A DNA stretch of 64,000 nt, from the IMG/VR virus record IMGVR_UViG_3300022591_000002; one strand, given 5' to 3'. Within the stretch, counting starts at the first letter, position 1, and every line of letters begins with the position of its first letter. The notes under the pieces were generated by a model. It worked only from the letters and a program-made list of their open reading frames with translations, made no database searches and was not told where the DNA came from. Below, in pieces: positions 47,584 through 64,000 of this stretch. This DNA comes from a virus. Lineage: Duplodnaviria; Caudoviricetes. Made by a program: the position numbers and the translations under genes.

Positions 47584-47904
47584 ATGAAAAAACTTTTGGC
47601 AACATTTATTCTATGTGCTGGCATGGGTAGCTGTGCAGTAGCACACGCCGATGGCTGGCGTCACGGAGGCGGTCACTATGTTTATCGGCCTAACTATGGT
47701 TGGGTAGCTCCTATAGTAGTTGGCGGCATAATTGGGTATGAGATTAATCGAGCCCAACAGCAACCTAATGTCGTTGTTGTACAGCCTCAACCAGTATACC
47801 CTCCTCCATCACCTCCTTATTGGCCACAGCCAGCAGACTATCATTGGGAAGCTATCCTAGATGCTAACTGTAACTGCTATAGAACTGTATTGGTACACAA
47901 CTAA
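47584..47904 (+). CDS. Exported Pro-rich protein
   Basis: Signal peptide MKKLLATF..AHA; GGAG RBS. Confidence 0.65.
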   Translation: MKKLLATFILCAGMGSCAVAHADGWRHGGGHYVYRPNYGWVAPIVVGGIIGYEINRAQQQPNVVVVQPQPVYPPPSPPYWPQPADYHWEAILDANCNCYRTVLVHN

Positions 47905-48950
47905 TGAAGATAAGCAAGATCCCCGGACTAGGTCGGTTTGGAGTGTTTATTGATGATGTTGACTTTGCATCAATGACTCCTGACCTGTGGAATGAAATTG
48001 GCAATATACATTTAAACAGTCTAGTCACTATATTGCGAAATGTTAAACTTGATGTTCGTTCGTATGTCAAGTGGATGAAGCAGTGGGGTCATCCAAGTTC
48101 AAATAAGTTTTACGAAATACAACACAGATACAACATTGAGTATCCATTTCAAATTATAGGAAAGACTGAAGTTAACGGAGTACCAGTTGATCCTGTAGAT
48201 GAAGAATGGGCACACGGCATATTTAGAATGTTAGCCCCAGACGAACACGGCATGCCAACATCGGCAATGATGGTAACTGGCAAACGTGATAAAGATGGAA
48301 ACCCGTTAGGCATGTTTGCTGATGGTGAGCTATTATGGCATAGTAACGAATCGGGACAGTTAGCATTTGCTCCTGGTGTTGCCCTGTTAGGTGAGTCAGG
48401 AGTTGTTGGAAGTTCTACAGGGTTTGTAACAACAACAGATTGGTACGAAAAACAAACAGAAAGTTTTCGCAGTGAACTAGATGAAATGATTATAGTTCAC
48501 AAGTTTACTCCAGGAAGAATCAATCCAGGATTACCCGAGCATCAAGACAAAATTATGTTTCATAATATGTGTCCAACTCCTAACGAGTTGCCACTGGTTA
48601 TTCAAAGTCCTGCTGGTATAAAAGGATTACATTATAGTATTAACACAATTGATTCTATTAAAGGAATGACCAAAGAAGAATCACAACAAGTATTTGATGT
48701 TATAAACAAAGGCCTGTTCACAGATGAACATACCTACGATCACTGGTATGCTCAAGATAATGATCTTTGTTTGTTTGACAACAGTATTACACTACACAGA
48801 AGATTAGGTGGCATTACTAATAGAATGTGTTACCGCATACAATATGCGTTTAGCAAACTTGCTCCTGATTATAATCCATACTTTCAAAAAATGTATGCAG
48901 ACGAGTATGCTAATAGAATAACAGACATGGCTAAATTAGTCATAACATAA
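47904..48950 (+). CDS. TauD/TfdA-like Fe(II)/2OG dioxygenase
   Basis: LLWHSNES; HYWY..DLCLFDNSITLHRR-type C-terminus (DHWYAQDNDLCLFDNSITLHRR). Confidence 0.75.
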   Translation: MKISKIPGLGRFGVFIDDVDFASMTPDLWNEIGNIHLNSLVTILRNVKLDVRSYVKWMKQWGHPSSNKFYEIQHRYNIEYPFQIIGKTEVNGVPVDPVDEEWAHGIFRMLAPDEHGMPTSAMMVTGKRDKDGNPLGMFADGELLWHSNESGQLAFAPGVALLGESGVVGSSTGFVTTTDWYEKQTESFRSELDEMIIVHKFTPGRINPGLPEHQDKIMFHNMCPTPNELPLVIQSPAGIKGLHYSINTIDSIKGMTKEESQQVFDVINKGLFTDEHTYDHWYAQDNDLCLFDNSITLHRRLGGITNRMCYRIQYAFSKLAPDYNPYFQKMYADEYANRITDMAKLVIT

Positions 48951-48962
48951 GGAACATACAAT

Positions 48963-49346
48963 ATGGCATACTCAGATAAAGTAATCGATCACTATGAAAA
49001 CCCACGCAACGTGGGTAGTTTTGGCAAGGACGAAGCAGGTGTAGGCACTGGTATGGTAGGAGCACCGGCCTGCGGTGACGTAATGAAACTACAAATCAAA
49101 GTTAGCCCTGAAGGTATCATAGAAGACGCTAAGTTCAAGACGTATGGGTGTGGTTCAGCTATTGCCAGTTCAAGCCTAGTAACAGAGTGGGTCAAGGGTA
49201 TGCATATTGACGAAGCCCAGAAACTCAAGAACTCAGACATTGCAACAGAACTTGCGCTACCACCCGTAAAGATTCACTGTTCAATTCTTGCAGAAGATGC
49301 AATCAAAGCCGCAGTAGCGGACTATAAGGCAAAGCATGGCAACTAA
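48963..49346 (+). CDS. iscU: Fe-S cluster scaffold IscU
   Basis: MAYSDKVIDHYENPRNVG, GAPACGD, FKTYGCGSAIASSS, LPPVKIHC. Confidence 0.95.
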   Translation: MAYSDKVIDHYENPRNVGSFGKDEAGVGTGMVGAPACGDVMKLQIKVSPEGIIEDAKFKTYGCGSAIASSSLVTEWVKGMHIDEAQKLKNSDIATELALPPVKIHCSILAEDAIKAAVADYKAKHGN

Positions 49347-50124
49347 AATATTAATTATGGGTCTACCTGGTGCAGGTAAGACTACACTAGCAGAAGCGTT
49401 ACGTGAACGCCTGTGGCAAGAAGGGCGCACAGTAAGTTGGTTTAATGCAGACGAAGTTCGTAAACAATATAACGATTGGGATTTCAGTCACGAAGGCCGT
49501 ATCCGTCAAAGTAAGCGCATGGACGAATTAGCCACAGCCACAACTACTGATTATGTTATTGCAGACTTTGTTGCTCCTTTAGTTGAAATGCGTAACAACT
49601 TTAAAGCAGACTGGACTATCTGGGTAGATACTATTCGTGAAGGTCGTTATGCTGATACAAACAAGGCTTTTATTGAGCCTGAGATCTACGACTTCCGTGT
49701 TATAGAACAAGATGCAGAAAAGTGGGCAGACTTTATTGTTAACCATATTATTGACGATCGCCGTCGTCCAACATTTGATTGGCGTAAAGAAACAGTACAG
49801 ATGTTAGGACGTTGGCAACCTTGGCATGATGGTCATCGTGCCCTATTTGAGCGCCTGTTGGCCAAGACAGGACAAGTTGTTATTCAAGTACGTGATGTAC
49901 AGGGCTGGCAAGATAGCAATCCATTTAACTTCTTTGATGTTGTTAAGTTTATTAAACGTGACTTAGATCCATTGTACCAAGGACAGTATGAGATACAGTT
50001 AGTTCCTAACATTGTACACATTGGCTGGGGTCGTGGTGTAGGATATACAGCAGGTGAGGAAACATTTGATGATAAAATCACTGATATTAGTGCTACAAAA
50101 ATTCGCAAACAATTGGGTATCTGA
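49336..50124 (+). CDS. APS-kinase (CysC)-like domain fused to an HxGH nucleotidyltransferase domain
   Basis: GLPGAGKTT, NADEVR, DFSHEGR; C-terminal GRWQPWHDGH. Confidence 0.75.
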   Translation: MATKILIMGLPGAGKTTLAEALRERLWQEGRTVSWFNADEVRKQYNDWDFSHEGRIRQSKRMDELATATTTDYVIADFVAPLVEMRNNFKADWTIWVDTIREGRYADTNKAFIEPEIYDFRVIEQDAEKWADFIVNHIIDDRRRPTFDWRKETVQMLGRWQPWHDGHRALFERLLAKTGQVVIQVRDVQGWQDSNPFNFFDVVKFIKRDLDPLYQGQYEIQLVPNIVHIGWGRGVGYTAGEETFDDKITDISATKIRKQLGI

Positions 50125-50132
50125 GTACGAAG

Positions 50133-50339
50133 ATGAGCGACTCAGCTGTAAGAAGTCTAGCCAAAGCAGTTAGTTGGCGAGTAACAGGAACTATAGATAC
50201 CTTTATCATTAGCTGGTTGATTACGGGTCAAGCCTTACTAGCCAGCGGAATTGCATTTACAGAAATTATGACAAAAATATTATTATTCTGGGCTCACGAA
50301 AGAGTATGGAATAAAATTAGTTGGGGGAAGGATGACTAA
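50133..50339 (+). CDS. DUF2061-like small membrane protein
   Basis: RSLAKAVSWR...HERVWNKISWG. Confidence 0.75.
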   Translation: MSDSAVRSLAKAVSWRVTGTIDTFIISWLITGQALLASGIAFTEIMTKILLFWAHERVWNKISWGKDD

Positions 50340-52032
50340 ACGTATTACTACTCTTGCGTTTAGTATGGCTTTAACTACAGATTACAATTTCCCTTACGTA
50401 CACATACTATTCAAACAGCATTACAAAGTCTTTGGAAAATACCCTGAACAATACGAATGGGTAGATCCGGATTATCTTACGCAAGATATAGAACCTTCTA
50501 TTGTTGCTGATTGGGTTGTTGATAATAAAATTGATATTGTGTTTGCAAGTATGTACTTGTGGAATCATCAATATACTCACATGATCCTTAAAGAAATTAA
50601 GGAACGTAATCCAAACATAACAATCATTGCAGGCGGCCCTCATGTCTTTGGCAATGATCCTGTGTACTTTGAAGAACACCCTTGGGTTGATATCGTTTCA
50701 GATGCTAAAGTATACGGCGAAGCATTCATTGTTGATTATCTTAACGGCAATGAACTAGCTGACGTTACAGGAGCAATTTGGGCAACTGGCAAAAGTAATA
50801 AAAAATTTAACATACGAGATTTTGAATGGGCTCCTAGAGTCTATGCTGACAATATTGACTATGTCAAGAAAGTCATTGCAATGGCTAAATCAGCTTCGAT
50901 GCCAGCCGTAGTTGGATTTGCTATTGAAACTAGTAGAGGATGCCCATTTGCCTGTACCTTCTGTGAGTGGGGTGGCGGCATTGCTACCAAGATGAGTAAA
51001 AAAGATCTAGCCGATGTTAAAGCAGATGTTGCGGCGTTAATATCTGCTAAGGCAGAACGATTCCATATATGTGATAGCAACTTTGGTTTTTGGGACGAAG
51101 ATGTAGCTCTGCTCAAACAAATTGCGGCATCTAATAGAATTGTAGGGTTTCCTAAAGTTGTTACTATCTATGGATGGAGTAAGAATAATAACAAGCGCCA
51201 TTATGAAATGTGTAAGATAATGGCCAACTCAACTATCGAAGGCTTCTATTATGCTCTAAGCATACAAGGGCTGAACGAGTTAACATTACAACAAATTAAA
51301 CGATCTGATTCGCCACTAGAAGATAGATGGGCATTAGCTAGAAAGATATCACAAGACTTCAAAACAAAAGTTCACGTTGAAATCCTAATGGGATTACCGG
51401 GTGACAAATTAGTTGACTATTATAAGATTTTAAACAAACGACATGAATTAGATGCGTTCTCTCATTATGTCTGGATGTTGTTACCAAACACCGAAGCCCA
51501 TACAAAAGAGTACAGAGAAAAGTACAGTCTTAAAACAGCATGGGCGCATAATGTACAACCTAGCTTCATAAAACACAAAGGTCAAAAGATTAACAAAGAA
51601 CTAACGGCCGCTCATGCAAAAAACAGATACGAATATGTAGTTGGCAGTTATTCTTTAGATCCAGAAGAGTGGCTAGAAGTATTCATGCTTGAACGGTTGT
51701 ATAATACAGCAAAGAAGCATACAATAGTATGGCCAGTGTTAGAAGCAAAGCGTGTTCAACTAGGACTTCATCCAAGCGTGTTTTGGAAAAAGATCATGCG
51801 TAACTTTAATAAAATAGATAGTCCAGAGTGGAAGTCTATATGGGAAGACATGTGGCCAAAAATACATAAAATGGTTGAGCCATTACAACCTGGAGAAATC
51901 AGGTACATGGGATCAGCAGGTATTGAAGATGGACACTCTGTGCATCTAAGTGATGTTGCTATTATGTTTTTTGAAAAGTACACAGACAAGTTGTTAGCAT
52001 TAGTTGAACAGGATCAGGAAGGATTACAATGA
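50332..52032 (+). CDS. B12-binding-domain-type radical SAM enzyme
   Basis: N-terminal SMYLWN...IIAGGPH; ETSRGCPFACTFCEW; ICDSNFG. Confidence 0.85.
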   Translation: MTKRITTLAFSMALTTDYNFPYVHILFKQHYKVFGKYPEQYEWVDPDYLTQDIEPSIVADWVVDNKIDIVFASMYLWNHQYTHMILKEIKERNPNITIIAGGPHVFGNDPVYFEEHPWVDIVSDAKVYGEAFIVDYLNGNELADVTGAIWATGKSNKKFNIRDFEWAPRVYADNIDYVKKVIAMAKSASMPAVVGFAIETSRGCPFACTFCEWGGGIATKMSKKDLADVKADVAALISAKAERFHICDSNFGFWDEDVALLKQIAASNRIVGFPKVVTIYGWSKNNNKRHYEMCKIMANSTIEGFYYALSIQGLNELTLQQIKRSDSPLEDRWALARKISQDFKTKVHVEILMGLPGDKLVDYYKILNKRHELDAFSHYVWMLLPNTEAHTKEYREKYSLKTAWAHNVQPSFIKHKGQKINKELTAAHAKNRYEYVVGSYSLDPEEWLEVFMLERLYNTAKKHTIVWPVLEAKRVQLGLHPSVFWKKIMRNFNKIDSPEWKSIWEDMWPKIHKMVEPLQPGEIRYMGSAGIEDGHSVHLSDVAIMFFEKYTDKLLALVEQDQEGLQ

Positions 52033-52763
52033 TAGGAATTATTGGGTATGGTATGGTTGGTAAAGCAGTTGAGTATGGATTTAAAAATACTCAAGTGATT
52101 GTGTCTGACCCTGCGTATGGAATAACAGACATTGTTGATGTTGTCCAAGCTGATCCAGAAGTTATATTTGTATGTGTTCCTACTCCTACAGATGACGACA
52201 AATATAGTTTGTTACGTGGCGTCCTTAAGGATATAAAGCAAACAGGCTATACAGGATTGATTGTTGTAAAGAGTACAGTATTACCGCAGTACATAGAAGA
52301 TTTTGATGTATTATACAATCCTGAGTTTCTAAGCAGAGCAACAGCTAACACAGACTTTACTAATCCTCCTATGTTGATCATAGGTGGTGATCCAATCAAA
52401 GCAAAAGAGTTACTGTCAATATATAAAAAGTATTCAACTGTGGTAACAGACAAAGTATTCATTACAGATATTAAAACTGCTAGCCTAGCCAAATATGCAA
52501 TGAATAGTTTTTACGCTACCAAGGTTACATTTATGAATCAAATGTACGAAGTAGCAGAACAAGTTGGTGCAGACTGGAACAGCGTAACTAATATCTTAAA
52601 AGAACATCCTTGGATGGGAACACATCACTTTGCTGTGCCCGGACCAGATGGTAGCAGAGGATTTGGTGGCCCTTGCTTGCCTAAAGACACAGAAGCATTA
52701 GTTAAAGAGTTTGATGTTGAGTTATTAAGAACTGTACTAGAAATAAACAAAAATTACAGATAA
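52029..52763 (+). CDS. ugd: UDP-glucose/GDP-mannose dehydrogenase (short form)
   Basis: GYGMVG, FVCVPTP, KSTVLP, NPEFL, KYAMNSFYATK, GFGGPCLPKD. Confidence 0.9.
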   Translation: MIGIIGYGMVGKAVEYGFKNTQVIVSDPAYGITDIVDVVQADPEVIFVCVPTPTDDDKYSLLRGVLKDIKQTGYTGLIVVKSTVLPQYIEDFDVLYNPEFLSRATANTDFTNPPMLIIGGDPIKAKELLSIYKKYSTVVTDKVFITDIKTASLAKYAMNSFYATKVTFMNQMYEVAEQVGADWNSVTNILKEHPWMGTHHFAVPGPDGSRGFGGPCLPKDTEALVKEFDVELLRTVLEINKNYR

Positions 52764-53296: not shown

Positions 53297-53356
53297 TCCT
53301 AATGTATGTTAATATTTAATCTATAAATACCTTTATAACAACAAATATGGACAACT

Positions 53357-54463
53357 ATGGTAATTGATCTTAATGTAACCAGCACGTGCAACCTAGCATG
53401 TACCTACTGCTCCGAAGGATATGAGTGCGGATTATCCACCGCCTATGAAGAAAATACAGAAGTAACACTAGACGACATTGAAGAATTCATGTCAAAGATT
53501 GATGACCCAAAACGTGACATTTACTTTTGGGGTGGCGAGCCTTTTGTTAACTGGGAATTCTGTCGCGGTGTTATGGAGAAGTATAAAGACAATCCAAACT
53601 ACAGCTTCTTCTTTTATACCAACGGCGTATACCTAAAGAAATACCTAAAAGAACTTGTACGCTTTCATGAAGCAATGCCAGATCGTTTGAAGATACAGGT
53701 TTCATATGATGGCAAACCTGTTAATGATTTAACACGCTTTGACAAAGCAGGCAATCCCAGTTCTGCAATGGTTAAGAGCAACTACAAGGCCGCTAAAGAA
53801 GCAGGCCTTAATGTTAAAATGAAATCAGTGTTACCTGCAGAACACTTTGATAAAATTTACGAAGCATTCTTAGATGTTATCTCAATGAACGATAACTACT
53901 TCCCAACACCAGACTTATACTCACAGTTAACAGAGGAAGAGTTTGCTCCTAGATTAGAAGTATTGAAACAAGGTCTAGCTAAGATCGCCAAGCACATCTA
54001 TACACATAAGCTACCTCCTGAAAAGTTTGGTTGGTTTATGCAAAGTCGTGCTCTATGCTCCTCTGGTATTAATTATGTATCAGTAGACTTAAACGGAGAC
54101 ATCAGTCCATGTCACGGTTGCATGTACAAAGAGTCACATGCACACGTTATGGGCAATATTTTAAAGACTCCAGACATTGATGCACTGATTAAAGAAAAGA
54201 CAGAAATGTACAAAGGTGCTTTAGCCAATCAACCTTTAATGTGTCAATCATGTGATAGCCAATTTTGTATGAAGTGCAATAGTGCTACTTACGAAAAAAG
54301 CGAAAAAGAAACATATCTTGAAAAATGGTCTGATCACACAAGTAATTGGCAAGTGTGCAAGGTATTCAAAACTAACGAAATTGTCCATCACGCATTGCGC
54401 ACCGCTCTTAAGACTTACAAGAAACCTAAGTTTGAAATTAAAGCGGAACAATGTAGCCTATGA
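53357..54463 (+). CDS. Radical SAM/SPASM enzyme 1
   Basis: CNLACTYC, WGGEP; SPASM CSSG..GDISPCHGC and CQSCDSQFCMKC. Confidence 0.9.
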   Translation: MVIDLNVTSTCNLACTYCSEGYECGLSTAYEENTEVTLDDIEEFMSKIDDPKRDIYFWGGEPFVNWEFCRGVMEKYKDNPNYSFFFYTNGVYLKKYLKELVRFHEAMPDRLKIQVSYDGKPVNDLTRFDKAGNPSSAMVKSNYKAAKEAGLNVKMKSVLPAEHFDKIYEAFLDVISMNDNYFPTPDLYSQLTEEEFAPRLEVLKQGLAKIAKHIYTHKLPPEKFGWFMQSRALCSSGINYVSVDLNGDISPCHGCMYKESHAHVMGNILKTPDIDALIKEKTEMYKGALANQPLMCQSCDSQFCMKCNSATYEKSEKETYLEKWSDHTSNWQVCKVFKTNEIVHHALRTALKTYKKPKFEIKAEQCSL

Positions 54464-55374
54464 TGCAAACAGTTATTCCAAAGATTGTTAGTGCTGGATC
54501 AAAGGACTTTGAAGAAGTTTCCTTTGGTTGGTTGCTGACTGATTGGTGTAACTATGATTGCAGTTATTGTTCTAGCAAAGGTTGGCTAGTTGATAAGTTT
54601 GATAGAAGCAAATATCGCACAGCTTTAATTGTTCCATTTCGATTAAAAAATATAGACGTAAACTTTACAATTGATCTAGCAGGTGGTGAGCCAACGGTTC
54701 ATCCTTATCTTAATGAGATACTTAAAAGCCTAGCTGATATCAATGCTTGCAAACGCATTGTAGTTAATACAAACCTTTCTAGATCATTGCGTTACTTTAA
54801 GAATCTATACAAACATGATAAGATTATGATATCAGCTTCTTATCATGTTGAACACGATAATGAAGACTTTGTTAAGAAATGCCTAGAGCTTAAGAACGAT
54901 AACTTTGTTGTTCATATTAATATTATTGATAATCCCATACACTGGCCTGCAATACTAAAACTAATTGAAACGTGTAGAGCAAATGATATCAATTATGCAT
55001 TTAATTCGTTGCACTCTACTGAGTATAAAGAAATAAATTATACTCCAGAATGTTTTGAAATGTTCAACGACCTTAATACAACTATTAAAGACCGTTACTA
55101 CTACGCATATGAAGACGGTACTACAGAACATCTTAGCTCATTTGAAATTAAACAAAAAAGCCTACACAAGTTTTTAGGTTATAAGTGTACAACACTAAAA
55201 TATCAAATACAATTTGATGGACGCATTGTTAGAGAATGTAACAGAGAACCAGTTACAGCTATGTTTCCAAAACGCAAAGACTTTTTTAAAACAATAACAT
55301 GTCCGCAAGCACAAGGGTGCGATTGCGATGTGATGCTAAATTATTACAAGGAATTACCCAATGTTTACGCTTGA
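54460..55374 (+). CDS. Radical SAM enzyme 2 (twitch-like C-terminus)
   Basis: CNYDCSYC, AGGEPT, NTNLS; C..DGRIVREC..CPQAQGCDC. Confidence 0.85.
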   Translation: MMQTVIPKIVSAGSKDFEEVSFGWLLTDWCNYDCSYCSSKGWLVDKFDRSKYRTALIVPFRLKNIDVNFTIDLAGGEPTVHPYLNEILKSLADINACKRIVVNTNLSRSLRYFKNLYKHDKIMISASYHVEHDNEDFVKKCLELKNDNFVVHINIIDNPIHWPAILKLIETCRANDINYAFNSLHSTEYKEINYTPECFEMFNDLNTTIKDRYYYAYEDGTTEHLSSFEIKQKSLHKFLGYKCTTLKYQIQFDGRIVRECNREPVTAMFPKRKDFFKTITCPQAQGCDCDVMLNYYKELPNVYA

Positions 55375-56485
55375 AATATCCGTAACTGAAAAATGTAACT
55401 TAGGTTGTCCCTACTGTTATGTTGCCAATCGCCCTACATGGATGACTCCAGAAGTTTTTGACAACGCTATGCCAGAGCTATACAATCTAATGTCTCGCAG
55501 TGGAGATAGAGACTATTATGTTAGTTTCTTTGGCGGAGAACCTCTGTTAAACTTTGATTTGATCAAATATGCTGTTCCTAAACTAAAAGCAGATCCAAGA
55601 TGTAAAGGTATTAACATCATTACCAATCTAACTATGATCGATGATGAAAAATACAAGTTTATTAAAGAGAACAATGTAGGAGTTAGTTGGAGTTTTGATG
55701 GAATGAGTTCTAACACCACTCGTCCATTGTTGCCCTTGTTAGAAAACACTAATCCAGAAACTGGCGAGTTGTTCAACGGCATCCTCGATATGTACAACTT
55801 TAAGAAGGATCTTATTATGGATCTAACTAACGGTTGTAAAGTTATGATATGGCCAGGCAATACTAAAGACATGGCAGAGAACTTTGAGTTCTTGCTGGAC
55901 TGGGGCATTGCACACCCTGACTTCAGTATTGTACGTGATGACGTTTGGAAGCGTGACGACATTCTAGAGTTTGGTGTTGAGTGTGAACGTCTAGCTACTG
56001 CATGGATCTCAAAGATTAAACAAGGCATACCATGTTCAGTTGGCTTCCTACGCCTAGCTATATTAGATATCTTGTTTGGGCTTGTAAAAGGTAAACGAGC
56101 GTTTGGTTGCTTTGCAGGAACTAACGGTGGTGTGCTTATGAGCTCAGGAGAGTTTTATCCTTGTGCTCGCTTTGCAAGTAAAAAGATTATGAAAATGGAT
56201 AGTGAATATGATTTCCAGTACTATCAAAAGATATTCAATCCACACAGCTATGACAAATGCCAACCCTGCGATCTTAAGCAGGTATGTAACGCAGGATGTA
56301 CTTACAGTCAAGTAACCAATGACAACAAGCCGTTAGACAGTATCTGTGAATTGTTCCATATCTATTATCAACAGGCTATGCGTGTTGTAGAAGAGTGCAA
56401 AGATGAACCTTTGTTCCAAGATTTAATATTGCATTATCTTGATAACATTGGTGTAGAAAATGAAGGTGTAGAATGCAGGAACTAA
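55361..56485 (+). CDS. Radical SAM/SPASM enzyme 3
   Basis: CNLGCPYC, FGGEPLL; CFAG..GEFYPC; CQPCDLKQVCNAGC. Confidence 0.92.
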   Translation: MFTLEISVTEKCNLGCPYCYVANRPTWMTPEVFDNAMPELYNLMSRSGDRDYYVSFFGGEPLLNFDLIKYAVPKLKADPRCKGINIITNLTMIDDEKYKFIKENNVGVSWSFDGMSSNTTRPLLPLLENTNPETGELFNGILDMYNFKKDLIMDLTNGCKVMIWPGNTKDMAENFEFLLDWGIAHPDFSIVRDDVWKRDDILEFGVECERLATAWISKIKQGIPCSVGFLRLAILDILFGLVKGKRAFGCFAGTNGGVLMSSGEFYPCARFASKKIMKMDSEYDFQYYQKIFNPHSYDKCQPCDLKQVCNAGCTYSQVTNDNKPLDSICELFHIYYQQAMRVVEECKDEPLFQDLILHYLDNIGVENEGVECRN

Positions 56486-56814
56486 AACCTAAAAAGACTT
56501 ATCGTAGTATTACCAGCATCCCTGTTAAGGTTGAAATGCAACCTGTTGAACACAAGGCTGATCGCGTATTAACTACAGATGAACTACAAGAACAAATTGA
56601 AGAAGCACGTAAAGGTAAAGCCAAAGTAGACAGCAAGTACGTAGGTTTTGAGTTAGACGAACGCGGCCATCTGTTTGAATACAAATATGATTATGTTCGC
56701 TATCTAGATAATATGAGTCATATTATTAAAGAAGCTAAGGCACGTAAAAAGAGTAAAGCTGATGACCTTTATCAGAATACACATAAAATGCGTATAAGCA
56801 ATTCACCAACATGA
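56473..56814 (+). CDS. Hypothetical protein within the radical SAM operon
   Basis: Overlaps both neighbouring rSAM genes. Confidence 0.65.
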   Translation: MQELKPKKTYRSITSIPVKVEMQPVEHKADRVLTTDELQEQIEEARKGKAKVDSKYVGFELDERGHLFEYKYDYVRYLDNMSHIIKEAKARKKSKADDLYQNTHKMRISNSPT

Positions 56815-57701
56815 TACCTATTGTAATAGATAAACATCCTAACGCAGATTTCTACGTTGGTGACCAAACAGATAAACCTACTCCAGAAGGATCTGGAGTC
56901 AATGTCTTGTACTTTACTAACAAGTGCAATCTAGCTTGTACATATTGCTATGAAGATTTGCCAGGCCGTCCTCCGCAGATTATGACCAAGGATGAAATCA
57001 GAGAATCTATTGATGCTATCATTGCTAGAGAAAAGCCTGAGAATCAAACGCTGATTGTATTGTTTGGCGGTGAAGCAACACTAGAGTGGGAAAACGTTTG
57101 CTATGCTATGGAATATGCTTACAGCAAGAAAACTAATCTACATTTTAATCTTACTACTAATGGTATCAAATATCTAAGCCAAAAGTTTATTGATGAAACT
57201 ATAGGTAACTATTTTTATAAGAAACGTATGTTGAGTATTGACATTAGCTTCGATGGCATAGGCAACGGTGATCGTATTTTTCATAACGGCAAAGACAGCA
57301 CCGGATCTATGCTAGAGGTGTTGCGTAATTTGGTAAAAAACAATGTTAGATATAGACTACGATATACTATTCAAAAGAATAACATAGATCACTGGTATGA
57401 AGATGCGCACCATATTATTAAAACATTTAAACCCTTGCGATTCATTACATCAGTTGCTTGGTCTACGTTAGATCCTGATACCGACTTTGATAAACTTGAC
57501 ACCGCTAAGTTGAAGTTTAGAGCCGACTGGGTAGAAAAGAAGTTAAGTGTGCCCGTTTGCGAGCTGTTTTGCGACATGTGTAACGGATGCGGCGAACGAA
57601 AAGAACTAAAAACCTACTTTACCAATGAAGGTAATGTAACAACTTACGGGAATTATGAGAACTCTCCAAAGTTCCATGATTTCAAAGAAAAAATACAATA
57701 A
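56811..57701 (+). CDS. Radical SAM enzyme 4
   Basis: CNLACTYC, FGGEAT, TTNG, ISFDG; short CELFCDMCNGC tail. Confidence 0.88.
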   Translation: MIPIVIDKHPNADFYVGDQTDKPTPEGSGVNVLYFTNKCNLACTYCYEDLPGRPPQIMTKDEIRESIDAIIAREKPENQTLIVLFGGEATLEWENVCYAMEYAYSKKTNLHFNLTTNGIKYLSQKFIDETIGNYFYKKRMLSIDISFDGIGNGDRIFHNGKDSTGSMLEVLRNLVKNNVRYRLRYTIQKNNIDHWYEDAHHIIKTFKPLRFITSVAWSTLDPDTDFDKLDTAKLKFRADWVEKKLSVPVCELFCDMCNGCGERKELKTYFTNEGNVTTYGNYENSPKFHDFKEKIQ

Positions 57702-57725
57702 ATAACAAACTAAGAGAGATAATCT

Positions 57726-58133
57726 ATGACTAATAACGACACCCCAACTAACACCGTAATTATTGATAAGCTAAATCACATATTTGAGCTTATTTGTGAA
57801 ATTTCAGCAGAAGATCAGGCGCTTGGCGTCCTTCTTAAAGAGTTTTATACCCTATCGCTAAAAACAGCATCTGAGATTGCACAGCACGGTGGTGACAGAG
57901 ATAAAATTGATATTAGTCAGCATATTAGCATCATCAGCAATATATTAGGTGCTGATGTTCGTGCAATGATGGAACAGGTATTATTAGATCTATCTGCACA
58001 ACAGGTAGAATCAAATAAAGAAGCCGACTCTGCAACTTTAGAATTTATTACTTCTGATTTAGATGATTATGAAAAGTTCATTGCTCAAAACAAAGCTAAA
58101 GAAAGTTTAGATTTTCTTTCAAAAGAAATTTAA
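57726..58133 (+). CDS. Helical acidic hypothetical protein
   Basis: ORF between rSAM 4 and the Cys-rich protein. Confidence 0.65.
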   Translation: MTNNDTPTNTVIIDKLNHIFELICEISAEDQALGVLLKEFYTLSLKTASEIAQHGGDRDKIDISQHISIISNILGADVRAMMEQVLLDLSAQQVESNKEADSATLEFITSDLDDYEKFIAQNKAKESLDFLSKEI

Positions 58134-58145
58134 GGATTTAAGCAT

Positions 58146-58664
58146 ATGGGAAGTCGTAATATATCATCGTTTGACGGAAGCAAGTACGGAGTATCGTATT
58201 CTATATCATCACCTAGTGCCGGAGCAACAATTCAGTCAACCGACTTTGATACTCTAGTTGCAAGATACAATGATGAGTATGTAAGACGTAATCAAGGAAA
58301 TCCCGGTATTGGCCATCCAACTGGTACTATTTCGTCAGATACAATCAAAGGGTGGGCTAATGGCCTAAATGGTTTAGGAGGTCAAGGTGCTACAGGTAAT
58401 AGTTTAGGCGACCCTGGGCAAGACGTTAACTCAACAACCATTAGTCAAATTAATCAAGGTGCGGCATTTTCTGGTGCAGGTGGCGGAGCTCCTGGAAACA
58501 TATCTGGCGGTAATGTGTTTTATGCATCCGACTTTACAGGAGTAGCAAACGCAGTTATTAATGCAGGTGCTCAATGTTTATGTAATTGCAACTACTGTAC
58601 TTGTAATTGTAACTACTGTACCTGTAACTGCGATTACTCATGTACCTGTAACTGTAACTATTAA
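58146..58664 (+). CDS. Gly/Ser-rich protein with 12-Cys C-terminal repeat; putative radical SAM substrate
   Basis: Ends CLCNCNY CTCNCNY CTCNCDYS CTCNCNY; TAAGGA RBS. Confidence 0.8.
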   Translation: MGSRNISSFDGSKYGVSYSISSPSAGATIQSTDFDTLVARYNDEYVRRNQGNPGIGHPTGTISSDTIKGWANGLNGLGGQGATGNSLGDPGQDVNSTTISQINQGAAFSGAGGGAPGNISGGNVFYASDFTGVANAVINAGAQCLCNCNYCTCNCNYCTCNCDYSCTCNCNY

Positions 58665-58780
58665 TTGAAAGGCAAATATGAAACATAAAGAATTAGAAGG
58701 AATTAAGCCTTTAGCTGATGAAGCTCGTAAAGCAGTTGTAGAGCGCAATAAAGTATTGGAATCAAATCCAGCTTATCGTG
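58665..58780. other. Probable junction between two different phage sequences
   Basis: Gene content switches; first GCTGC seen at 58780. Confidence 0.7.
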
Positions 58781-59442
58781 CTGCTGCAAAAGATACTAGA
58801 GATATTCATGAACTGCAAAACGGTATGGAACACGTTGGAGCTGATAAATTTATTGAAAAATATGTTTTAGGCAATACAGATGTTGCTTCTAAAGCTAACG
58901 TACAAAGACTTATTAAAGAATTAGGTGAAAACTCACAAGGTCATCAAGCAATTAAAGCTGGTACTTTGCAACATTTAAAACATACTGCTGGAATTGTTAA
59001 CGATCAAGGAGCTTTTGGTCAAGCTGCTTATAACAAATTTGTTCATAAAAACTTAGGATCTAAGTTAGAAGACATTATGGAAGCTCAACACGTTGCTGAT
59101 GTTAAGGATCTTGGAGATGTTGCAAGATTGACTGAACATAGAAAAGGTGGAGCTGGTTTTGCTAATACAAGCAATACTCAAACAGTTGGCGCTAGAGAAC
59201 AAGCAAAACAAAATCTTAAACAACTTGGTAAAAATGTTGTTGCTGGAGCTGCCGAAGCTGCTGTCAATCTTAAAACATTAGGATTTGGTGGTACTGCTGC
59301 AAGACATACTTACAGAGGATGGAAAGAAGGCGCTGAAGCAACTAAAGCGGCAGCAGAACAAGCAGAAAAACTCAGAGAAACTTTGGATCTTGGATCTGCT
59401 GTAAAAAAACATAGCTTATCAGACATACAAAAAGGAAAATAA
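58678..59442 (+). CDS. Virion (ejection-type) protein, possibly a C-terminal fragment
   Basis: Ala/Lys-rich helical protein directly upstream of a fibre gene, as in P22-like gene order. Confidence 0.45.
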   Translation: MKHKELEGIKPLADEARKAVVERNKVLESNPAYRAAAKDTRDIHELQNGMEHVGADKFIEKYVLGNTDVASKANVQRLIKELGENSQGHQAIKAGTLQHLKHTAGIVNDQGAFGQAAYNKFVHKNLGSKLEDIMEAQHVADVKDLGDVARLTEHRKGGAGFANTSNTQTVGAREQAKQNLKQLGKNVVAGAAEAAVNLKTLGFGGTAARHTYRGWKEGAEATKAAAEQAEKLRETLDLGSAVKKHSLSDIQKGK

Positions 59443-59444
59443 TA

Positions 59445-60191
59445 ATGGCATCAGTTCTTTTATCTCCAGTAGGAAATAGCGGTCAGATATTTACTGACAA
59501 TAATGGCGTTCCTTTAGCTGGTGGTCTTATCTATACATATCAAGCTGGTAGCTCTAGTCCTCTCGCTACATACACTACAAACAATGGAACTATTGCCAAT
59601 GCAAATCCTATTGTTTTAGATGCAAATGGTCGAGTACCAAATGAAGTTTGGTTATTTACTGGTTATAGCTATAAATTTATCATTCAAACAGCTACAGGAA
59701 CTTCTTTGCAAACTTTGGATAATATTTATCCTATTTTGCAAAATGCTCCTGCAAGCGCACCATCAGTTCCTAGTGGCGGTATTATTTTATGGTCAGGTTC
59801 TACAGGTTCAGTTCCTAGCGGATGGTATTTATGCGATGGAACAAACGGAACACCTGATTTACGCAACTCGTTCATAGTTGGCGCTGGTAATACATACGCA
59901 GTAGGAGCAACAGGTGGCTCTACTGATGCAATTGTAGTAAGTCATACCCATACAGCAACTTCTACAGTTACAGACCCTGGACACGTTCATACTTTAAGCC
60001 CATCTTATCAATCAAATGTAAATTCAGGACAAGGCGGTAGAAACGATGGCTCACAAAACAATCTTGTTTCTGCAACACAATCAGCAACAACAGGAATTAC
60101 AGTAGCTACAACTAATGCTACTGCTGGTACAAGTGGCACAAATCAAAATCTTCCTCCATATTATGCACTTGCATACATTATGAAATCTTAA
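59445..60191 (+). CDS. Tail fibre/spike with head-binding-like N-terminus and tail-collar domain
   Basis: GVPLAGGLIYTYQAG; GGIILWSG..PSGWYLCDGTNGTPDLR; NLPPYYALAYIMK. Confidence 0.8.
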   Translation: MASVLLSPVGNSGQIFTDNNGVPLAGGLIYTYQAGSSSPLATYTTNNGTIANANPIVLDANGRVPNEVWLFTGYSYKFIIQTATGTSLQTLDNIYPILQNAPASAPSVPSGGIILWSGSTGSVPSGWYLCDGTNGTPDLRNSFIVGAGNTYAVGATGGSTDAIVVSHTHTATSTVTDPGHVHTLSPSYQSNVNSGQGGRNDGSQNNLVSATQSATTGITVATTNATAGTSGTNQNLPPYYALAYIMKS

Positions 60192-60192
60192 G

Positions 60193-60432
60193 GTGAGCAA
60201 TATGTCTTTTGAACTTGACCCGGTTAAATATGGAATGCTTTGGAGTAAGGTGGAATCTTATGAAGATAAATTTGAAGCTATGTCTAAAAAAATGGATAAG
60301 CTGGAGTCTTCAATTGATGAACTCGTTGCTCTTGCCAATCGTAGTCGTGGCGGTCTGTTTATGGGCATTGGCATTATTTCAGCTATTAGTTCTCTTGTGG
60401 GATTCGTAGCGCATTGGTTCAGTTCAAAGTAA
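60193..60432 (+). CDS. Coiled-coil protein with C-terminal TM
   Basis: Heptad segment followed by a hydrophobic helix. Confidence 0.65.
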   Translation: MSNMSFELDPVKYGMLWSKVESYEDKFEAMSKKMDKLESSIDELVALANRSRGGLFMGIGIISAISSLVGFVAHWFSSK

Positions 60433-60456
60433 GGCGGTATAAGAAAGTGAACCTAT

Positions 60457-60906
60457 ATGTCAGATCCATTCGGTATTTCGGAAGGAGCAAAGGCTCTTAG
60501 CGGTAGTCTTGATAGCAGCAGAGAGGCTGCAAAAGGATTATCTAAAAGCATTGAAGGAATACAGCAAGACGGATTAGATGTAGCTCAACGCAAAGCAAAT
60601 GAAAGGCGTAGAGCATTACGAGAAGCAGAACATAAGAAGCAAACAGCGTTGATTAAAGCGCTTGAAGATTGGAACAAAAAGAAACAAATGAGCGATCAAG
60701 AAACAAAGTTAAAGATCGACTTTGTTAAAAAGTACGGTGCTAAAGAATGGGATGCTGTTTTAAGAATTAAGTTGGATATTGAGAATATGGAACGCAAAGC
60801 TAATGAAGAATTTCAACATGATCTTAAAGAAGTTCGTAAAGTTCAATTTTATTGTTTTGCTGTAGCAGCTCTAATAGCTTGGTATTTGACTTGGGGAATA
60901 AAGTGA
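60457..60906 (+). CDS. Coiled-coil membrane-anchored hypothetical protein
   Basis: C-terminal TM segment. Confidence 0.65.
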   Translation: MSDPFGISEGAKALSGSLDSSREAAKGLSKSIEGIQQDGLDVAQRKANERRRALREAEHKKQTALIKALEDWNKKKQMSDQETKLKIDFVKKYGAKEWDAVLRIKLDIENMERKANEEFQHDLKEVRKVQFYCFAVAALIAWYLTWGIK

Positions 60907-60987
60907 ACAATGAAAGATTTTTATGGTTTTTTATAGTTTTGTGTATTTGGCTTATTGTGGGAACTTTAATTATGGGAACTTATTAAT

Positions 60988-61386
60988 ATGTTTGGCATAG
61001 ATGACATTATTGGAGCTGGTCTTAAAATTATCGATAAGGTAATTCCTGATCCACAAGCTAAAGCTCAAGCTCAATTAGAATTGCAAAAGTTAGCAAACGA
61101 TGGTCAGTTAGCTGAACTTCAAGCTGACATGAACGAACAAAACAATGTATCTGATCGTTGGAAAGCTGACTTGCAGTCTGATAGTTGGTTATCTAAAAAT
61201 ATTAGACCAATGACTCTTATTGCAATTCTTGCTGGTTATTTTGTATTTGCTACATCTTCAGCTTTTGATTTGAATGTAAAACAAGCGTATGTAGAGCTTC
61301 TCGGTCAATGGGGAATGCTCATAATGTCAGCTTATTTTGGCGGTAGAACTTTAGAAAAGATTATGTCTAAAAAGGATGCAAAATGA
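60988..61386 (+). CDS. Holin (GTA 3TM-holin-like)
   Basis: IIDKVIPDP, RWKAD..SDSWLSKNIRP, AYFGGRTLEK; lysis context. Confidence 0.75.
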   Translation: MFGIDDIIGAGLKIIDKVIPDPQAKAQAQLELQKLANDGQLAELQADMNEQNNVSDRWKADLQSDSWLSKNIRPMTLIAILAGYFVFATSSAFDLNVKQAYVELLGQWGMLIMSAYFGGRTLEKIMSKKDAK

Positions 61387-61595
61387 ACAATAAAGAACAT
61401 ATATTGACAATTGCAGCTTGGTCTTTAGTTTGCGTTGTAATTGCTATGCTTTGTATGTTTGCTTTTGCCGTTATTGATCCTAATGTTGATGATGAAAAAG
61501 TATTTCAAATCATAGGGCCGGCATTTCAAACAATAGTTGGTGGTTTTATTGGTTTAATTACAGGAATTAAAATAGGATCAAATGATGACGAATGA
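61383..61595 (+). CDS. Two-TM membrane protein
   Basis: AFQTIVGGFIGLITG. Confidence 0.65.
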   Translation: MNNKEHILTIAAWSLVCVVIAMLCMFAFAVIDPNVDDEKVFQIIGPAFQTIVGGFIGLITGIKIGSNDDE

Positions 61596-62181
61596 TCAGT
61601 TGGAAGCTCTAGGAATTGATCCTAAATGGCTTGATCCTTTAAATAGCACTTTTGATAAATACGAGTTAAATACGCCAACTCGTCAAGCTGCTTTTATTGG
61701 TCAATGCGGTCATGAGTCAGGAAATTTTAAAACGCTGGAAGAAAATCTTCATTACAGCGCTAAAGGCTTAATGGCAACTTGGCATAGTCGTTTTCCTGAT
61801 GAAGCAACTGCTGACAAGTACGCTAATAATCCTGAGATGATCGCAAACAAGGTTTATGGCGGTAGAGCTGATCTTGGCAATACTGAAGACGGTGACGGAT
61901 GGCGCTTTCATGGAAGAGGCGTTATACAGTTGACCGGGCGTGCAAATTACAAAACTTGTGGTGATGCTATAGGCGTGGATCTAATAAACGCTCCTGAGCT
62001 GCTTTTAGAGCCTAAAAACGCTGTTATGAGCGCTGGATGGTTTTGGAACAAAAGAGGCTTAAATGCACTTGCAGACAATCAAGATTGGGAAACTATCACC
62101 AAAAGAATAAATGGCGGTACATTAGGTTTACAAGATAGAATCGATAAAACTCACAAAGCAATGGATATTTTAGGAGCTTAA
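61582..62181 (+). CDS. Endolysin, GH19 (chitinase-like) family
   Basis: AFIGQCGHESG, EENL.YS, FHGRGVIQLTGRANY, TKRINGG. Confidence 0.9.
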   Translation: MMTNDQLEALGIDPKWLDPLNSTFDKYELNTPTRQAAFIGQCGHESGNFKTLEENLHYSAKGLMATWHSRFPDEATADKYANNPEMIANKVYGGRADLGNTEDGDGWRFHGRGVIQLTGRANYKTCGDAIGVDLINAPELLLEPKNAVMSAGWFWNKRGLNALADNQDWETITKRINGGTLGLQDRIDKTHKAMDILGA

Positions 62182-62183
62182 AA

Positions 62184-62405
62184 ATGGCAACAAATTTCAC
62201 AATCAAAGAACACAAACCAGCAAAAGCTACAACAAAAGCGCATTATGTTGTTGAGCGTGAGCATGAGAAAAAAGAGCATAACGAGCTAGTTCGTTTAGAA
62301 AAAAAGCTCGATAAGCATATTGGATTGCCTATGGAAAAGGCTCACAAATCCGAAAAAGGAAACAGCCAAAAGGCTGCTCCTCTTCCAAATATGCGTAAGT
62401 ATTAA
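62184..62405 (+). CDS. Small basic His/Lys-rich protein
   Basis: AGGAG RBS. Confidence 0.6.
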   Translation: MATNFTIKEHKPAKATTKAHYVVEREHEKKEHNELVRLEKKLDKHIGLPMEKAHKSEKGNSQKAAPLPNMRKY

Positions 62406-62608
62406 CGCACTCTTGCTACTTTAGCTTTTCTTAAAACTGCCTCATATTGCTGCTTGGCTTGATCGTCAAGTTTGCGTAGAGGCAGTTCTTGAAAATATTT
62501 GTATTTAGCTTGATATTCAGGAAGTTCTGAAGGTCGAACCCAACCGTATTTAACTCTCCAGCGTTCTTCTATATCAGTTCCTGCTGCTGTCCAAATATAT
62601 TCGGTCAT
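62402..62608 (-). CDS. Hypothetical protein
   Basis: AGGAG RBS. Confidence 0.65.
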   Translation of the reverse strand: MTEYIWTAAGTDIEERWRVKYGWVRPSELPEYQAKYKYFQELPLRKLDDQAKQQYEAVLRKAKVARVR

Positions 62609-62617
62609 AGCATCTCC

Positions 62618-62872
62618 TTAAAATGGAATATCTGACTCCATATCAGCCAAATTAGTTGCTGGTGCAGCTCCTGCTGGTTTATCTTCAGGAACATTTAGGT
62701 AGGCAAATATAGCGCCTTCCTTCATAGCAAATAAAGGCAAATTCTCAATCTTAAGCATCAAACCATTCTTTGTTTCAAGAACTACGCCAATAGACTGATA
62801 CTTCTTTTTTACAATTCCTGCTTGGTCTTTATACTCGGAAACTGCTGCTTTTACAAAATATTTAACTGACAT
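62618..62872 (-). CDS. Small SSB-like protein with acidic ..DIPF tail
   Basis: C-terminal DMESDIPF; next to the exonuclease. Confidence 0.55.
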   Translation of the reverse strand: MSVKYFVKAAVSEYKDQAGIVKKKYQSIGVVLETKNGLMLKIENLPLFAMKEGAIFAYLNVPEDKPAGAAPATNLADMESDIPF

Positions 62873-63549
62873 TATTTACTCTCCATTAATTTAACTTCTG
62901 CTTCTACTTCATTTAAAAACTGATTAATTTCTGTTTCCATATAGAGAATAAACTCAGGATCTCTAGGAACATTGATTATTAATAATTTGCTTCTTTCAGG
63001 CATTCTTGGATCAAAGCTCACAAAATCGCACCATTTAGCACCAGTAACTGACATTTGTGCTTGCATCTGAATAATGTATTTTTGAGGCGGTTTTCCTTCT
63101 TTTACATAGCTCCAATGCGTAGCAGAGTTTGGACACTTAATCTCGATAAGACCATCACTACCAACAAGTCCATCAGGAGAGCAGCCAAACCAATCAATAG
63201 TAGGATGGTCAATAAATGGTACTTGATCAACGAAATTAAACGATGCAACTTCATACGCAACTCTTGCTTGCGGTTCTGTTGCTGTTCCCCATTCCATTGC
63301 TGCATTAGTGTAAGATTCCTCTATGGTCTTTGTAACTCGTTGCAAGGCAAGCTCAATCAGATAGTTTTGTCGACTAGCTGAAGCGCCTGATTTTGTTCTT
63401 GCAAGTATGTCAGCAACTCTAGAAGCTGTCACCTTTCCTCTACGCAGCTCATGCCATTCTGCCGTTCCTTGTTGCACAGTTTGAACCATTCCAGCAAACG
63501 GTATAGGTTCAAAAGCTGATAATCGATCTTCAGTTGTAAATGTAGTCAT
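62872..63549 (-). CDS. YqaJ/lambda-exonuclease family recombinase
   Basis: QGTAEW..RRGKVTAS, MEWG...EPQAR, GCSPDG, EIKCP, QMQAQM. Confidence 0.9.
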   Translation of the reverse strand: MTTFTTEDRLSAFEPIPFAGMVQTVQQGTAEWHELRRGKVTASRVADILARTKSGASASRQNYLIELALQRVTKTIEESYTNAAMEWGTATEPQARVAYEVASFNFVDQVPFIDHPTIDWFGCSPDGLVGSDGLIEIKCPNSATHWSYVKEGKPPQKYIIQMQAQMSVTGAKWCDFVSFDPRMPERSKLLIINVPRDPEFILYMETEINQFLNEVEAEVKLMESK

Positions 63550-63836
63550 GTATTTTCCAAAATCCAAGAGTTTAAAATTTTAAGCAATTCCCAATTTAAT
63601 GATGCTCCAGTTTGATCTGCTAAATTTCTTGCATCATCAGTCATACCATTAAGGTAATCAATGGTTAATTGTGGCGCACAAAAATTAATTGGTTTGCGTG
63701 GCTCAAATTCATTAACAATTCGAATTACTTCACGAACTTTATGCCAATCATGGAAATCATAAAACTTTTGATAATAAAAATTTTCTGATTTTCCATCCTC
63801 TTCTTTTGAAATATTAAGTTCATAAGATGTAGTCAT
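63546..63836 (-). CDS. Hypothetical protein
   Basis: Coupled ORF. Confidence 0.55.
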   Translation of the reverse strand: MTTSYELNISKEEDGKSENFYYQKFYDFHDWHKVREVIRIVNEFEPRKPINFCAPQLTIDYLNGMTDDARNLADQTGASLNWELLKILNSWILENT

Positions 63837-63934
63837 AGTTTTCCTATCATTAAATGTAAATAATCAACAATTATTGTTAATTCGCCAAAAATTAATCCTG
63901 CTACAAAAGAAAACCAAAGCGCTATTATTTTCAT
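63833..63934 (-). CDS. Small membrane peptide (33 aa)
   Basis: MKIIALWFSFVAGLIFG...; ATGA overlaps on both sides. Confidence 0.45.
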   Translation of the reverse strand: MKIIALWFSFVAGLIFGELTIIVDYLHLMIGKL

Positions 63935-64000
63935 TTTTCCATCCAAATATAAAAAATTGTGGCAAAAATAAGCAACCAGCAAATTGCACCAGTTAAAGCC

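Follow-up and report, generated by a model that had tools for sequence, protein, structure and literature searches.

Here we focus on a small gene in a 64,000-nucleotide stretch of viral DNA (IMG/VR record IMGVR_UViG_3300022591_000002, Caudoviricetes; the whole stretch is called the window below) and on the radical S-adenosylmethionine (radical SAM) genes that precede it. The gene, an open reading frame (ORF) at positions 58146-58664 of the plus strand, encodes a protein of 172 residues whose C-terminus is made of cysteine-rich heptads. On balance, we favour the view that this heptad protein is the substrate of a phage radical SAM cassette and that its tail becomes enzymatically cross-linked, with a chemistry that we infer from related enzymes. 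The protein would probably be a trimer-forming component of the virus particle.

The heptad tail and its family

The cysteine core (58575-58661, plus strand) covers residues 144-172, which read CLCNCNY, CTCNCNY, CTCNCDY, a spacer Ser and CTCNCNY, with the stop codon directly after; the general form is (CxCNCNY)x3, a spacer residue and CTCNCNY. The first-pass annotation of this DNA had described four heptads of alternating Cys ending in Tyr. Its coordinates and pattern stand, but the array is not strictly contiguous, being composed of three heptads, a spacer residue and one further heptad. No HxH motif occurs in the tail, there is next to no variation in the Asn, Thr and Tyr between its cysteines, and no signal peptide is evident from the sequence of the 172-residue protein. 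The heptad copies differ from one another by synonymous codons (tgt/tgc, act/acc, aat/aac and tac/tat), and Tandem Repeats Finder reports for the tail DNA a period of 21 with 3.7 copies and only 77% matches. From this codon variation and the low match at the 21-nucleotide period, it follows that the tail is no fresh slippage array.

A homologue search over 5.8 billion proteins (threshold E<=0.01) returned 542 homologues of the heptad protein, and the tail is carried by 120 of the 120 best. Across 512 heptads, Cys is invariant at every one of its positions. Asn or Asp occupies position 4, Asn (rarely Asp) position 6, and Tyr (rarely Phe or His) position 7. At position 2, Thr is found in 264 of the 272 middle heptads and in 120 of 120 last heptads, with free variation (T, L, V, I, M) in the first heptad only. 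In most members the array is exactly 3+1 heptads around a spacer that varies (Ser in 57, Ala in 54), and a few members carry 3, 7, 9, 12, 13 or as many as about 25 heptads. Chance falls far short of explaining this pattern. In pairwise comparison of 24 distinct tail DNAs, 12.1 of the 29 codons on average differ synonymously against 2.2 that differ non-synonymously, and the figures for the 29 codons upstream of the tail, compared in ungapped register, are 3.1 and 23.0. This bears out the protein-level selection on the tail that had first been suspected from the codon variants in the window. Together with the column frequencies, these figures indicate that constraint on the intervening residues is as strong as that on the cysteines themselves.

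With 12 Cys in 29 residues and a CxC spacing, the tail could also be read as a metal-binding, Fe-S-binding or disulfide knot, the radical SAM enzymes then serving different substrates (sugars, nucleotides or further proteins of the same gene island, for example). Phage fibres that hold metal ions along the trimer axis do exist, as in the HxH needle at the tip of T4 gp37, and they lend this reading a precedent. We nevertheless consider it improbable, since plain ligation needs no constraint on the Asn, Thr and Tyr that are here as invariant as the Cys. For a disulfide knot there is the further difficulty that members with 3, 7 or 9 heptads have an odd number of Cys per chain and per trimer, so that not every Cys can sit in a disulfide.

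The family varies widely in length and arrangement. Its longest relatives reach 851 residues, and in the forms from Campylobacter phages and in other long forms the repeats are internal to large proteins. Two to four heptad paralogues stand in tandem in some phages, with differing bodies (L041 4721-7285; L044 7386-9443; L009 9659-10803). In prokaryote genome assemblies, 409 stretches match the back-translated CNCNYCTC, where a rough chance expectation would be about 2. Two of the 409 passed a tblastn filter, a 161-kb 'Chloroflexota' contig and an 832-residue protein in a metagenome-assembled genome (MAG) of Anaeromicropila, and both look like phage DNA within MAG bins. A tblastn search of the heptad protein against 50,697 phage records gave no match, probably owing to low-complexity masking.

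The radical SAM cassette

Five radical SAM genes lie upstream of the heptad gene on the same strand, and three of them are CteB/PapB-like. The first, rSAM1 (53357-54463; on the plus strand, like every gene of the window given below between 50332 and 58664), is a core member of the cassette with Pfam Radical_SAM and SPASM domains, SPASM scoring 24.7 bits against a cut-off of 21.5 and retaining its cysteine motifs, and PapB and CteB as best matches. The second core member, rSAM3 (55361-56485), is a CteB-like radical SAM/SPASM enzyme, assigned from its alignment to CteB and from reciprocal synteny. A shorter enzyme, rSAM4 (56811-57701), is present in most cassettes (Pfam, NCBIfam and synteny) and holds just a part of the SPASM cysteine motifs, a C-terminal CX3CX2CX2C; the heptad gene follows it at a distance of 445 nucleotides. 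All three score above the Pfam Radical_SAM cut-off, and their CxxxCxxC cluster cysteines are at residues 11/15/18 in rSAM1, 12/16/19 in rSAM3 and 39/43/46 in rSAM4. PapB is the best NCBIfam model for each (rSAM1 73.3, rSAM3 124.8 and rSAM4 86.7 bits), and by these profile scores the three are relatives of the PapB equivalog (NF047865) and not members of it. The closest solved structure is CteB (5WGG), with E values of 9e-10 for rSAM1, 4e-19 for rSAM3 and 1.6e-8 for rSAM4. Residues 6-328 of rSAM3 align at that E value to CteB 101-430, through the SPASM domain, and both the cluster cysteines and the SPASM motifs C-x(n)-G-x4-C and CxxCx5Cx3C are conserved.

That these enzymes modify the tail in some other way, by C-C or ether links to Tyr as in triceptides, darobactin and dynobactin, or by formylglycine formation, methylation or glycosylation, seems to us the least probable of the alternatives. 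Models of the cyclophane-forming YhhB and DynA and of anaerobic sulfatase maturases do match the enzymes, at E 1e-11 to 1e-17, a nearly invariant Tyr ends every heptad, and a gene resembling B12 radical SAM methyltransferases flanks the cassette together with sugar enzymes. Both the top-scoring model (PapB) and, among solved structures, the best relative (CteB) are Cys-thioether synthases, however, and Cys dominates the core and is absolutely invariant in it.

The tie between tail and enzymes is conserved in both directions. In a forward scan, the fetched flank of 44 heptad-bearing IMG/VR contigs was searched for radical SAM genes, which were found in 39, mostly directly upstream; each of the five contigs lacking them is interrupted by the end of the contig or locus. 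L004 and L005 had been considered as heptad genes without enzymes. This was ruled out, as both end 0.9 kb past the heptad gene and their relative L062 has orthologues of rSAM1 and rSAM3 3.2 kb downstream. A reverse scan with an rSAM3-orthologue profile (full-length orthologues, identity at least 33%, 32 contigs) placed a heptad gene within 8 kb of rSAM3 in 27 contigs and elsewhere on the contig in two, namely CPt10 and a 161-kb contig, where it is at 73002. The rest are L071, which has a remnant, and two fragments cut on the relevant side. The linkage of the tail to its radical SAM neighbours, which the first-pass annotation had supposed, is thus well founded, and among homologues no intact gene lacks the Cys tail while keeping the enzymes, the sole exception being the truncated gene of L071.

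Cassettes of the T4-like type run in the order sugar dehydrogenase, rSAM1, rSAM3, sometimes rSAM2, orf113, rSAM4 and orf135, and continue with one to four heptad genes, o132, o337, o309, rSAM5, a family 2 glycosyltransferase (GT2) and rSAM6. A divergent order has rSAM3, sometimes rSAM4, rSAM1, the heptad gene and o132, and o132 comes after the heptad gene in nearly all cassettes. The association outlasts these changes of gene order as well as the dispersal of the genes in Campylobacter phages; it is specific to the CteB/PapB-like pair rSAM1 and rSAM3 and holds in lineages without sugar genes. In a wider circle, distant viral radical SAM/SPASM genes (21-29% identical to rSAM3) often adjoin other Cys-repeat proteins, some of them 850-2000 residues long, with repeat grammars such as CTCTCTC (L110, L112, L122), CECECE (L120) and CQxCxxC (L116, L117, L111, L131), and further cases in L123 and L115. 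This suggests a wider set of putative phage pairs of enzyme and Cys-repeat protein.

The other genes of the cassette in the window are less informative. They form, from 53357 to 58664, a tightly packed run on one strand. The accessory radical SAM gene rSAM2 (54460-55374; Pfam) occurs in some cassettes and at a variable position. The small conserved protein orf113 (56473-56814) has orthologues in T4-like cassettes, and orf135 (57726-58133), a helical and likewise conserved protein, immediately precedes the heptad gene in the T4-like type. Neither of these, nor o132, matched a known family in Pfam or PHROGs, apart from phrog_4004 (unknown function) for orf135, for which a protein-atlas look-up gave no usable lead either. 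The prediction for o132 is a confident all-helical fold (pLDDT, the predicted score of the local distance difference test, 90.7) without a match in the PDB, the AlphaFold DB clusters, a PDB sequence profile search or the protein atlas. Its candidacy as a leader binder of the type of a RiPP recognition element (RRE) was ruled out, there being no beta-sheet winged-helix core. No transporter or leader peptidase was recognised by Pfam among the cassette genes scanned. At the head of the run, 27 nucleotides before the start of rSAM1, a sequence match to the T4-type late-promoter motif, TATAAATA, is found at 53322-53329 (plus strand). Late expression was not accepted on this ground: the window has two such motifs, which is no enrichment, and the motif is at this site in one of 19 relatives, so that it is a weak hint only.

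Upstream, the conserved flank of the T4-like cassette is a nucleotide-sugar dehydrogenase (52029-52763; NCBIfam TIGR03026 and synteny), and the same island has a B12-binding radical SAM gene of the KedN5-like C-methyltransferase family (50332-52032; Pfam and NCBIfam). Just before the island, at 47904-50124, there are a TauD-like oxygenase, an IscU (NifU_N) scaffold and an adenylylsulfate (APS) kinase-like gene, which are also in an independent 50.8-kb contig. The arrangement of IscU fits a phage-encoded Fe-S supply for its many radical SAM enzymes, and marine T4-like viral genomes have been found to carry up to 12 radical SAM genes, with IscU (PMC5332604). The natural downstream island (L022 3573-9094 and the 50.8-kb ENA contig) adds four more radical SAM genes, GT2, a 2-oxoglutarate (2OG)-Fe(II) oxygenase and a sulfotransferase-like gene. 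For the notion of a metal, Fe-S or disulfide knot, the IscU gene a few kb upstream and the wealth of other tailoring genes in the island (UDP-sugar dehydrogenase, GT2, 2OG oxygenases, sulfotransferase and more radical SAM) would be points in favour. Against it stands the synteny, in that the tie is to rSAM1 and rSAM3 in particular, survives rearrangement and persists where sugar genes are absent.

The genes that follow the heptad gene in the window must be treated with caution. L022-L024 and the 50.8-kb ENA contig, independent assemblies that all have the identical heptad gene, continue with o132, o337, o309 and more radical SAM genes; they are the same as the window up to about 58704 and unrelated beyond. 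Of o132, the window keeps the first 9 codons (58678-58704, plus strand; no difference from L022 and L024 up to about 58704), the rest being replaced. In the opposite direction, two studies yield contigs spanning 58686-59700 whose sequence left of 58686 is unrelated. Judged from these independent contigs, the join at 58686-58704, about 19 nucleotides common to the T4-like phage to its left and to an unrelated small phage to its right, is an assembly chimera. Since the contigs diverge there, 58705-64000 (a 254-residue ORF, a tail-collar fibre, holin-like, lysin and exonuclease genes) belongs to the other, small phage. The tail-collar fibre, holin and lysin genes were therefore rejected as context for the heptad gene; phage-tail genes right downstream are not its true neighbours. 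A megablast of 12 kb against phage records gave a single match of 200 nucleotides, to a tail-collar gene, and this too is beyond the join.

The body, the S74 extension and the particle

The rest of the protein has three conserved helical segments: a first one with the invariant residues E44, R47 and R48 (58236-58286, plus strand; alignments), a short second one, and a third that abuts the core. An AlphaFold2 model of the body built with 113 sequences has helices at residues 31-47, 64-75 and 127-142 at pLDDT 82-92, the Gly/Ser/Asn-rich parts being loops. The third segment, an amphipathic helix before the core (58524-58571, plus strand; residues 127-142, pLDDT 82-88), has the family consensus I-x-A-S-x-I-N-x-L-I-x-x-L-x-x-A-G from column frequencies, and the motif is found again in P0121, the CPt10 orthologue discussed below. 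We infer that this pre-core helix is a candidate docking or recognition element.

The earlier annotation had pointed to a Gly/Ser/Asn-rich N-terminal part with the segment GATIQSTDFDTLVARYNDEYVRR, and both are present; its comparison of this part with phage fibre and whisker modules finds no support. Profile searches against Pfam, NCBIfam and the fibre-type PHROGs matched no family to the body, and the sole PHROG match of the 172-residue protein is that of its tail to phrog_26958. Fold searches with the body model (PDB, BFVD and wide VIA) returned weak helical look-alikes only, with a best Z of 6.4; such missing matches need not speak against a fibre role. The body alone (residues 1-143) found two relatives among 1.84 billion representative proteins, both of them tail-bearing. 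Modelled as three helices and loops, the body is a fast-evolving helical module. A homotrimer prediction with three copies (score 0.00, chain pLDDT <50) is not used as evidence either way.

What follows the tail is more telling. Among the 120 best homologues, 25 stop at ...CNCNY like the window protein, 61 go on for about 72 residues and 34 have short extensions. The extension of about 72 residues begins S-D-x-R-L-K-x-N-I and is Pfam Peptidase_S74 (PF13884); in these 61 homologues it keeps the Ser and Lys spacing of the Ser-x4-Lys dyad. In P0002 the domain scores 29.1 bits against a cut-off of 22, with profile position 1 on Ser173, right after the last Tyr, and the same region has no match among PDB sequences, although Pfam recognises the domain. 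S74 is a self-cleaving intramolecular chaperone of endosialidases and tail fibres, which aids trimerisation and then cuts before its Ser. Removal of S74 before this Ser would leave a mature end ...CNCNY, that is, the C-terminus which the window protein has of its own accord. The window protein, for its part, has no Pfam match to S74, and its chain ends at Tyr172. Both P0002 (74% identical, with S74) and P0003 (72%, without) are close relatives of it, which implies that the chaperone is gained and lost easily. Most of the 34 short extensions are a 12-residue stub, SDERLKTxIxYM or SDVTTKxNIVYM (e.g. P0022, P0026 and P0041), which retains the Ser and Lys of the S74 dyad without the remaining chaperone. 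In the L044 array, forms with the stub and with full S74 are found side by side.

Two further observations bear on the particle. In L004 and L062 the heptad gene directly follows giant collagen-repeat fibre genes (2007 residues; Pfam Collagen, E 2e-105). The Campylobacter group II phages have a protein of 534 residues, CPt10_1891 (phrog_26958), with the pre-core helix and about seven CTC[D/N]CNY heptads in its middle; these proteins share with the family only that helix and the repeats. By coordinates and 92.5% identity, gene 3-9 of phage IBB_35 is the orthologue of the CPt10 heptad protein. Its product (60,318 Da, 2.6% coverage) is among the virion proteins detected by electrospray ionisation tandem mass spectrometry (Carvalho et al. 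2012, PMC3322345 Table S2). The S74 fusions, the collagen-repeat neighbours and this weak detection in the virion proteome argue for a fibre or particle protein, and for the small protein of the window a role of the fibre-tip or decoration type is the most likely. The records of CP21 (NC_019507.1 74991-76592) and of vB_CjeM_WX1 call the heptad-repeat protein a 'putative N-acetylneuraminate pyruvate lyase', a name for which we see no support, since Pfam finds no family in the CPt10 orthologue P0121 (93.8% identical).

These data also bear on the question of whether the protein is instead a precursor of a ribosomally synthesised and post-translationally modified peptide (RiPP) with an unusually long leader, from which the modified core is cut off to act freely as an antimicrobial, metal chelator or signal. 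A leader-like helix followed by a C-terminal Cys-rich core beside CteB/PapB-like enzymes would suit such a precursor, as would a body that evolves very fast, as leaders may, and the two to four tandem paralogues of L041, L044 and L009, which RiPP clusters often have as well. Yet neither a leader peptidase nor an exporter is recognisable among the cassette genes scanned, the repeats lie mid-protein in the long forms of up to 851 residues, and a Campylobacter-phage relative was detected in a virion proteome. S74 after the core in half of the family is a better fit to a folded oligomer than to a released peptide, and a chain of 172 residues with three conserved helices forms a confidently modelled domain, not a short peptide. 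We regard a freed RiPP as unlikely, about as unlikely as the metal or disulfide knot.

Proposed maturation, known systems and implications

For the cross-linked particle protein that we favour, maturation can be pictured as follows. The heptad protein would be made in the cytoplasm alongside the enzymes encoded just upstream, and its pre-core helix would present or dock the 29-residue tail to rSAM1 and rSAM3, usually also to rSAM4. With the labour presumably divided among them, the enzymes would turn the heptad cysteines into covalent cross-links that may connect residues within one chain or between chains, the most likely products being thioethers to Asn/Asp, Thr or Tyr carbons. The body, or the S74 domain in relatives, would assemble the chains, probably into trimers, and the outcome would be a compact, oxidation-proof cross-linked knot at the C-terminal tip. 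Thioethers are favoured because the nearest characterised enzymes make them and because Asn/Asp, Thr and Tyr are conserved in the manner of acceptors, Asn-to-Asp being the main tolerated change. They are favoured also because thioether installation by a SPASM enzyme is documented for CrpC and the Cys-repeat protein CrpA (PMC13692751). The first-pass annotation had likewise offered, as one of two options, a virion appendage with a cross-linked or metal-binding tip; a cross-linked tip of a particle protein is still the best reading, though the fibre-like body that went with it is unsupported.

Several points weigh against this reading. The link between enzymes and tail is drawn from synteny and enzyme family, and would be loosened by L071, which keeps the enzymes and has, between orf135 and o132, a 71-residue N-terminal remnant of the heptad gene (10665-10880); the remnant could stem from a deletion, be a pseudogene or reflect a repeat that collapsed in assembly. 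The scores of the radical SAM enzymes (73-125 bits) are far under the NF047865 equivalog cut-off of 340. Nor do rSAM1 and rSAM3 have the N-terminal RRE (PqqD-like) domain of CteB, as is seen from residue 6 of rSAM3 pairing with CteB 101 and from cluster motifs that start at residues 11-12, and no RRE-like protein was recognised among the small cassette proteins. The islands hold sugar enzymes, oxygenases and further radical SAM genes too, and some cassette enzymes may consequently act on other substrates. On the side of the protein, the AlphaFold pLDDT of the tail is just 35-40, and the body lacks a match to a known fibre family or fold in Pfam, PHROGs and fold searches. Finally, the virion detection amounts to about one peptide at 2.6% coverage, in a distant relative with only the helix and the repeats in common.

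A more specific proposal is tentative, and we think it somewhat less probable than its negation: that many aquatic T4-like phages, and Campylobacter group II phages, staple the tip of one of their own particle proteins with two to three paralogous enzymes, one for each Cys of the heptad, and that these enzymes cross-link into an oxidation-proof knot three chains which a self-removing S74 chaperone or the helical body has gathered.

Radical SAM maturation of Cys-rich peptides and proteins as such is known; new here would be a phage protein as its target and the coupling to S74. Among the closest parallels are the ranthipeptide/SCIFF systems CteB-CteA (thermocellin, 5WGG) and PapB-PapA (freyrasin), which resemble the phage cassette in their radical SAM/SPASM enzymes and in a target that is a C-terminal, repetitive, Cys-rich stretch after a conserved helix. 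They differ in scale, the phage substrate being 172 residues long (relatives up to 851) against a peptide of roughly 45, as well as in the CxCNCNY heptad grammar and in having one enzyme where the phages have two or three paralogues. The phage enzymes, moreover, are RRE-less and far below family cut-offs, their core is often followed by S74, and they are known from genes alone. With S74 fibres and spikes, such as the K1F endosialidase and the L-shaped fibre of T5, the family shares Peptidase_S74 after the tail in 61 of 120 homologues. The window protein, in contrast, has no S74, and the heptad array is carried on a small helical body rather than a beta-helical fibre or enzyme; cleavage and trimer would be expected from the domain. 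A third parallel is QhpD, which forms several Cys-to-Asp/Glu thioethers inside a small structural subunit (QhpC) that is retained in a larger assembly. Its model TIGR03906 matches rSAM1, rSAM3 and rSAM4 at E 1e-14 to 2e-20, far below the cut-off, whereas QhpC is a cellular enzyme subunit without repeats and is served by a single enzyme. A further parallel is CrpC of Methanococcus voltae, a SPASM radical SAM enzyme that makes thioether (ranthionine) links on the large Cys-repeat protein CrpA, whose N-terminal part aids recognition (PMC13692751, 2026). Both cases would apply thioether formation to Cys repeats at the scale of a protein. The archaeal system is cellular, has a 17-residue repeat with CxxQ/D and a single TIGR04463 enzyme, and lacks S74; it has no link to viruses, and phages are unmentioned in that paper (PMC13692751).

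[quoted passage not shown] Timms et al. (2010) described a 21-bp in-gene repeat in CPT_0180/CPt10_1891 and 11-12 radical SAM genes (PMC2853527). The radical SAM genes of these phages have been proposed as metabolic and the repeat as a DNA feature (PMC2853527, PMC3322345, PMC5332604), and we found no paper in the literature linking the Cys-repeat protein to radical SAM enzymes in phages.

Radical SAM stapling of Cys is known from small antibiotic-like peptides and, since 2026, from one archaeal protein. If phages apply it to their own proteins, the many orphan radical SAM genes of marine T4-like and Campylobacter phages would gain a concrete job and substrate. Under the more specific proposal above, a virus structural protein would for the first time be seen to carry a thioether network put in place by enzymes. 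The system is compact and testable, with an extremely conserved 29-residue motif, two or three enzymes that appear to serve it and relatives in cultivable Campylobacter phages, and it may find use as a portable set of tag and enzymes for very stable, cross-linked protein ends.

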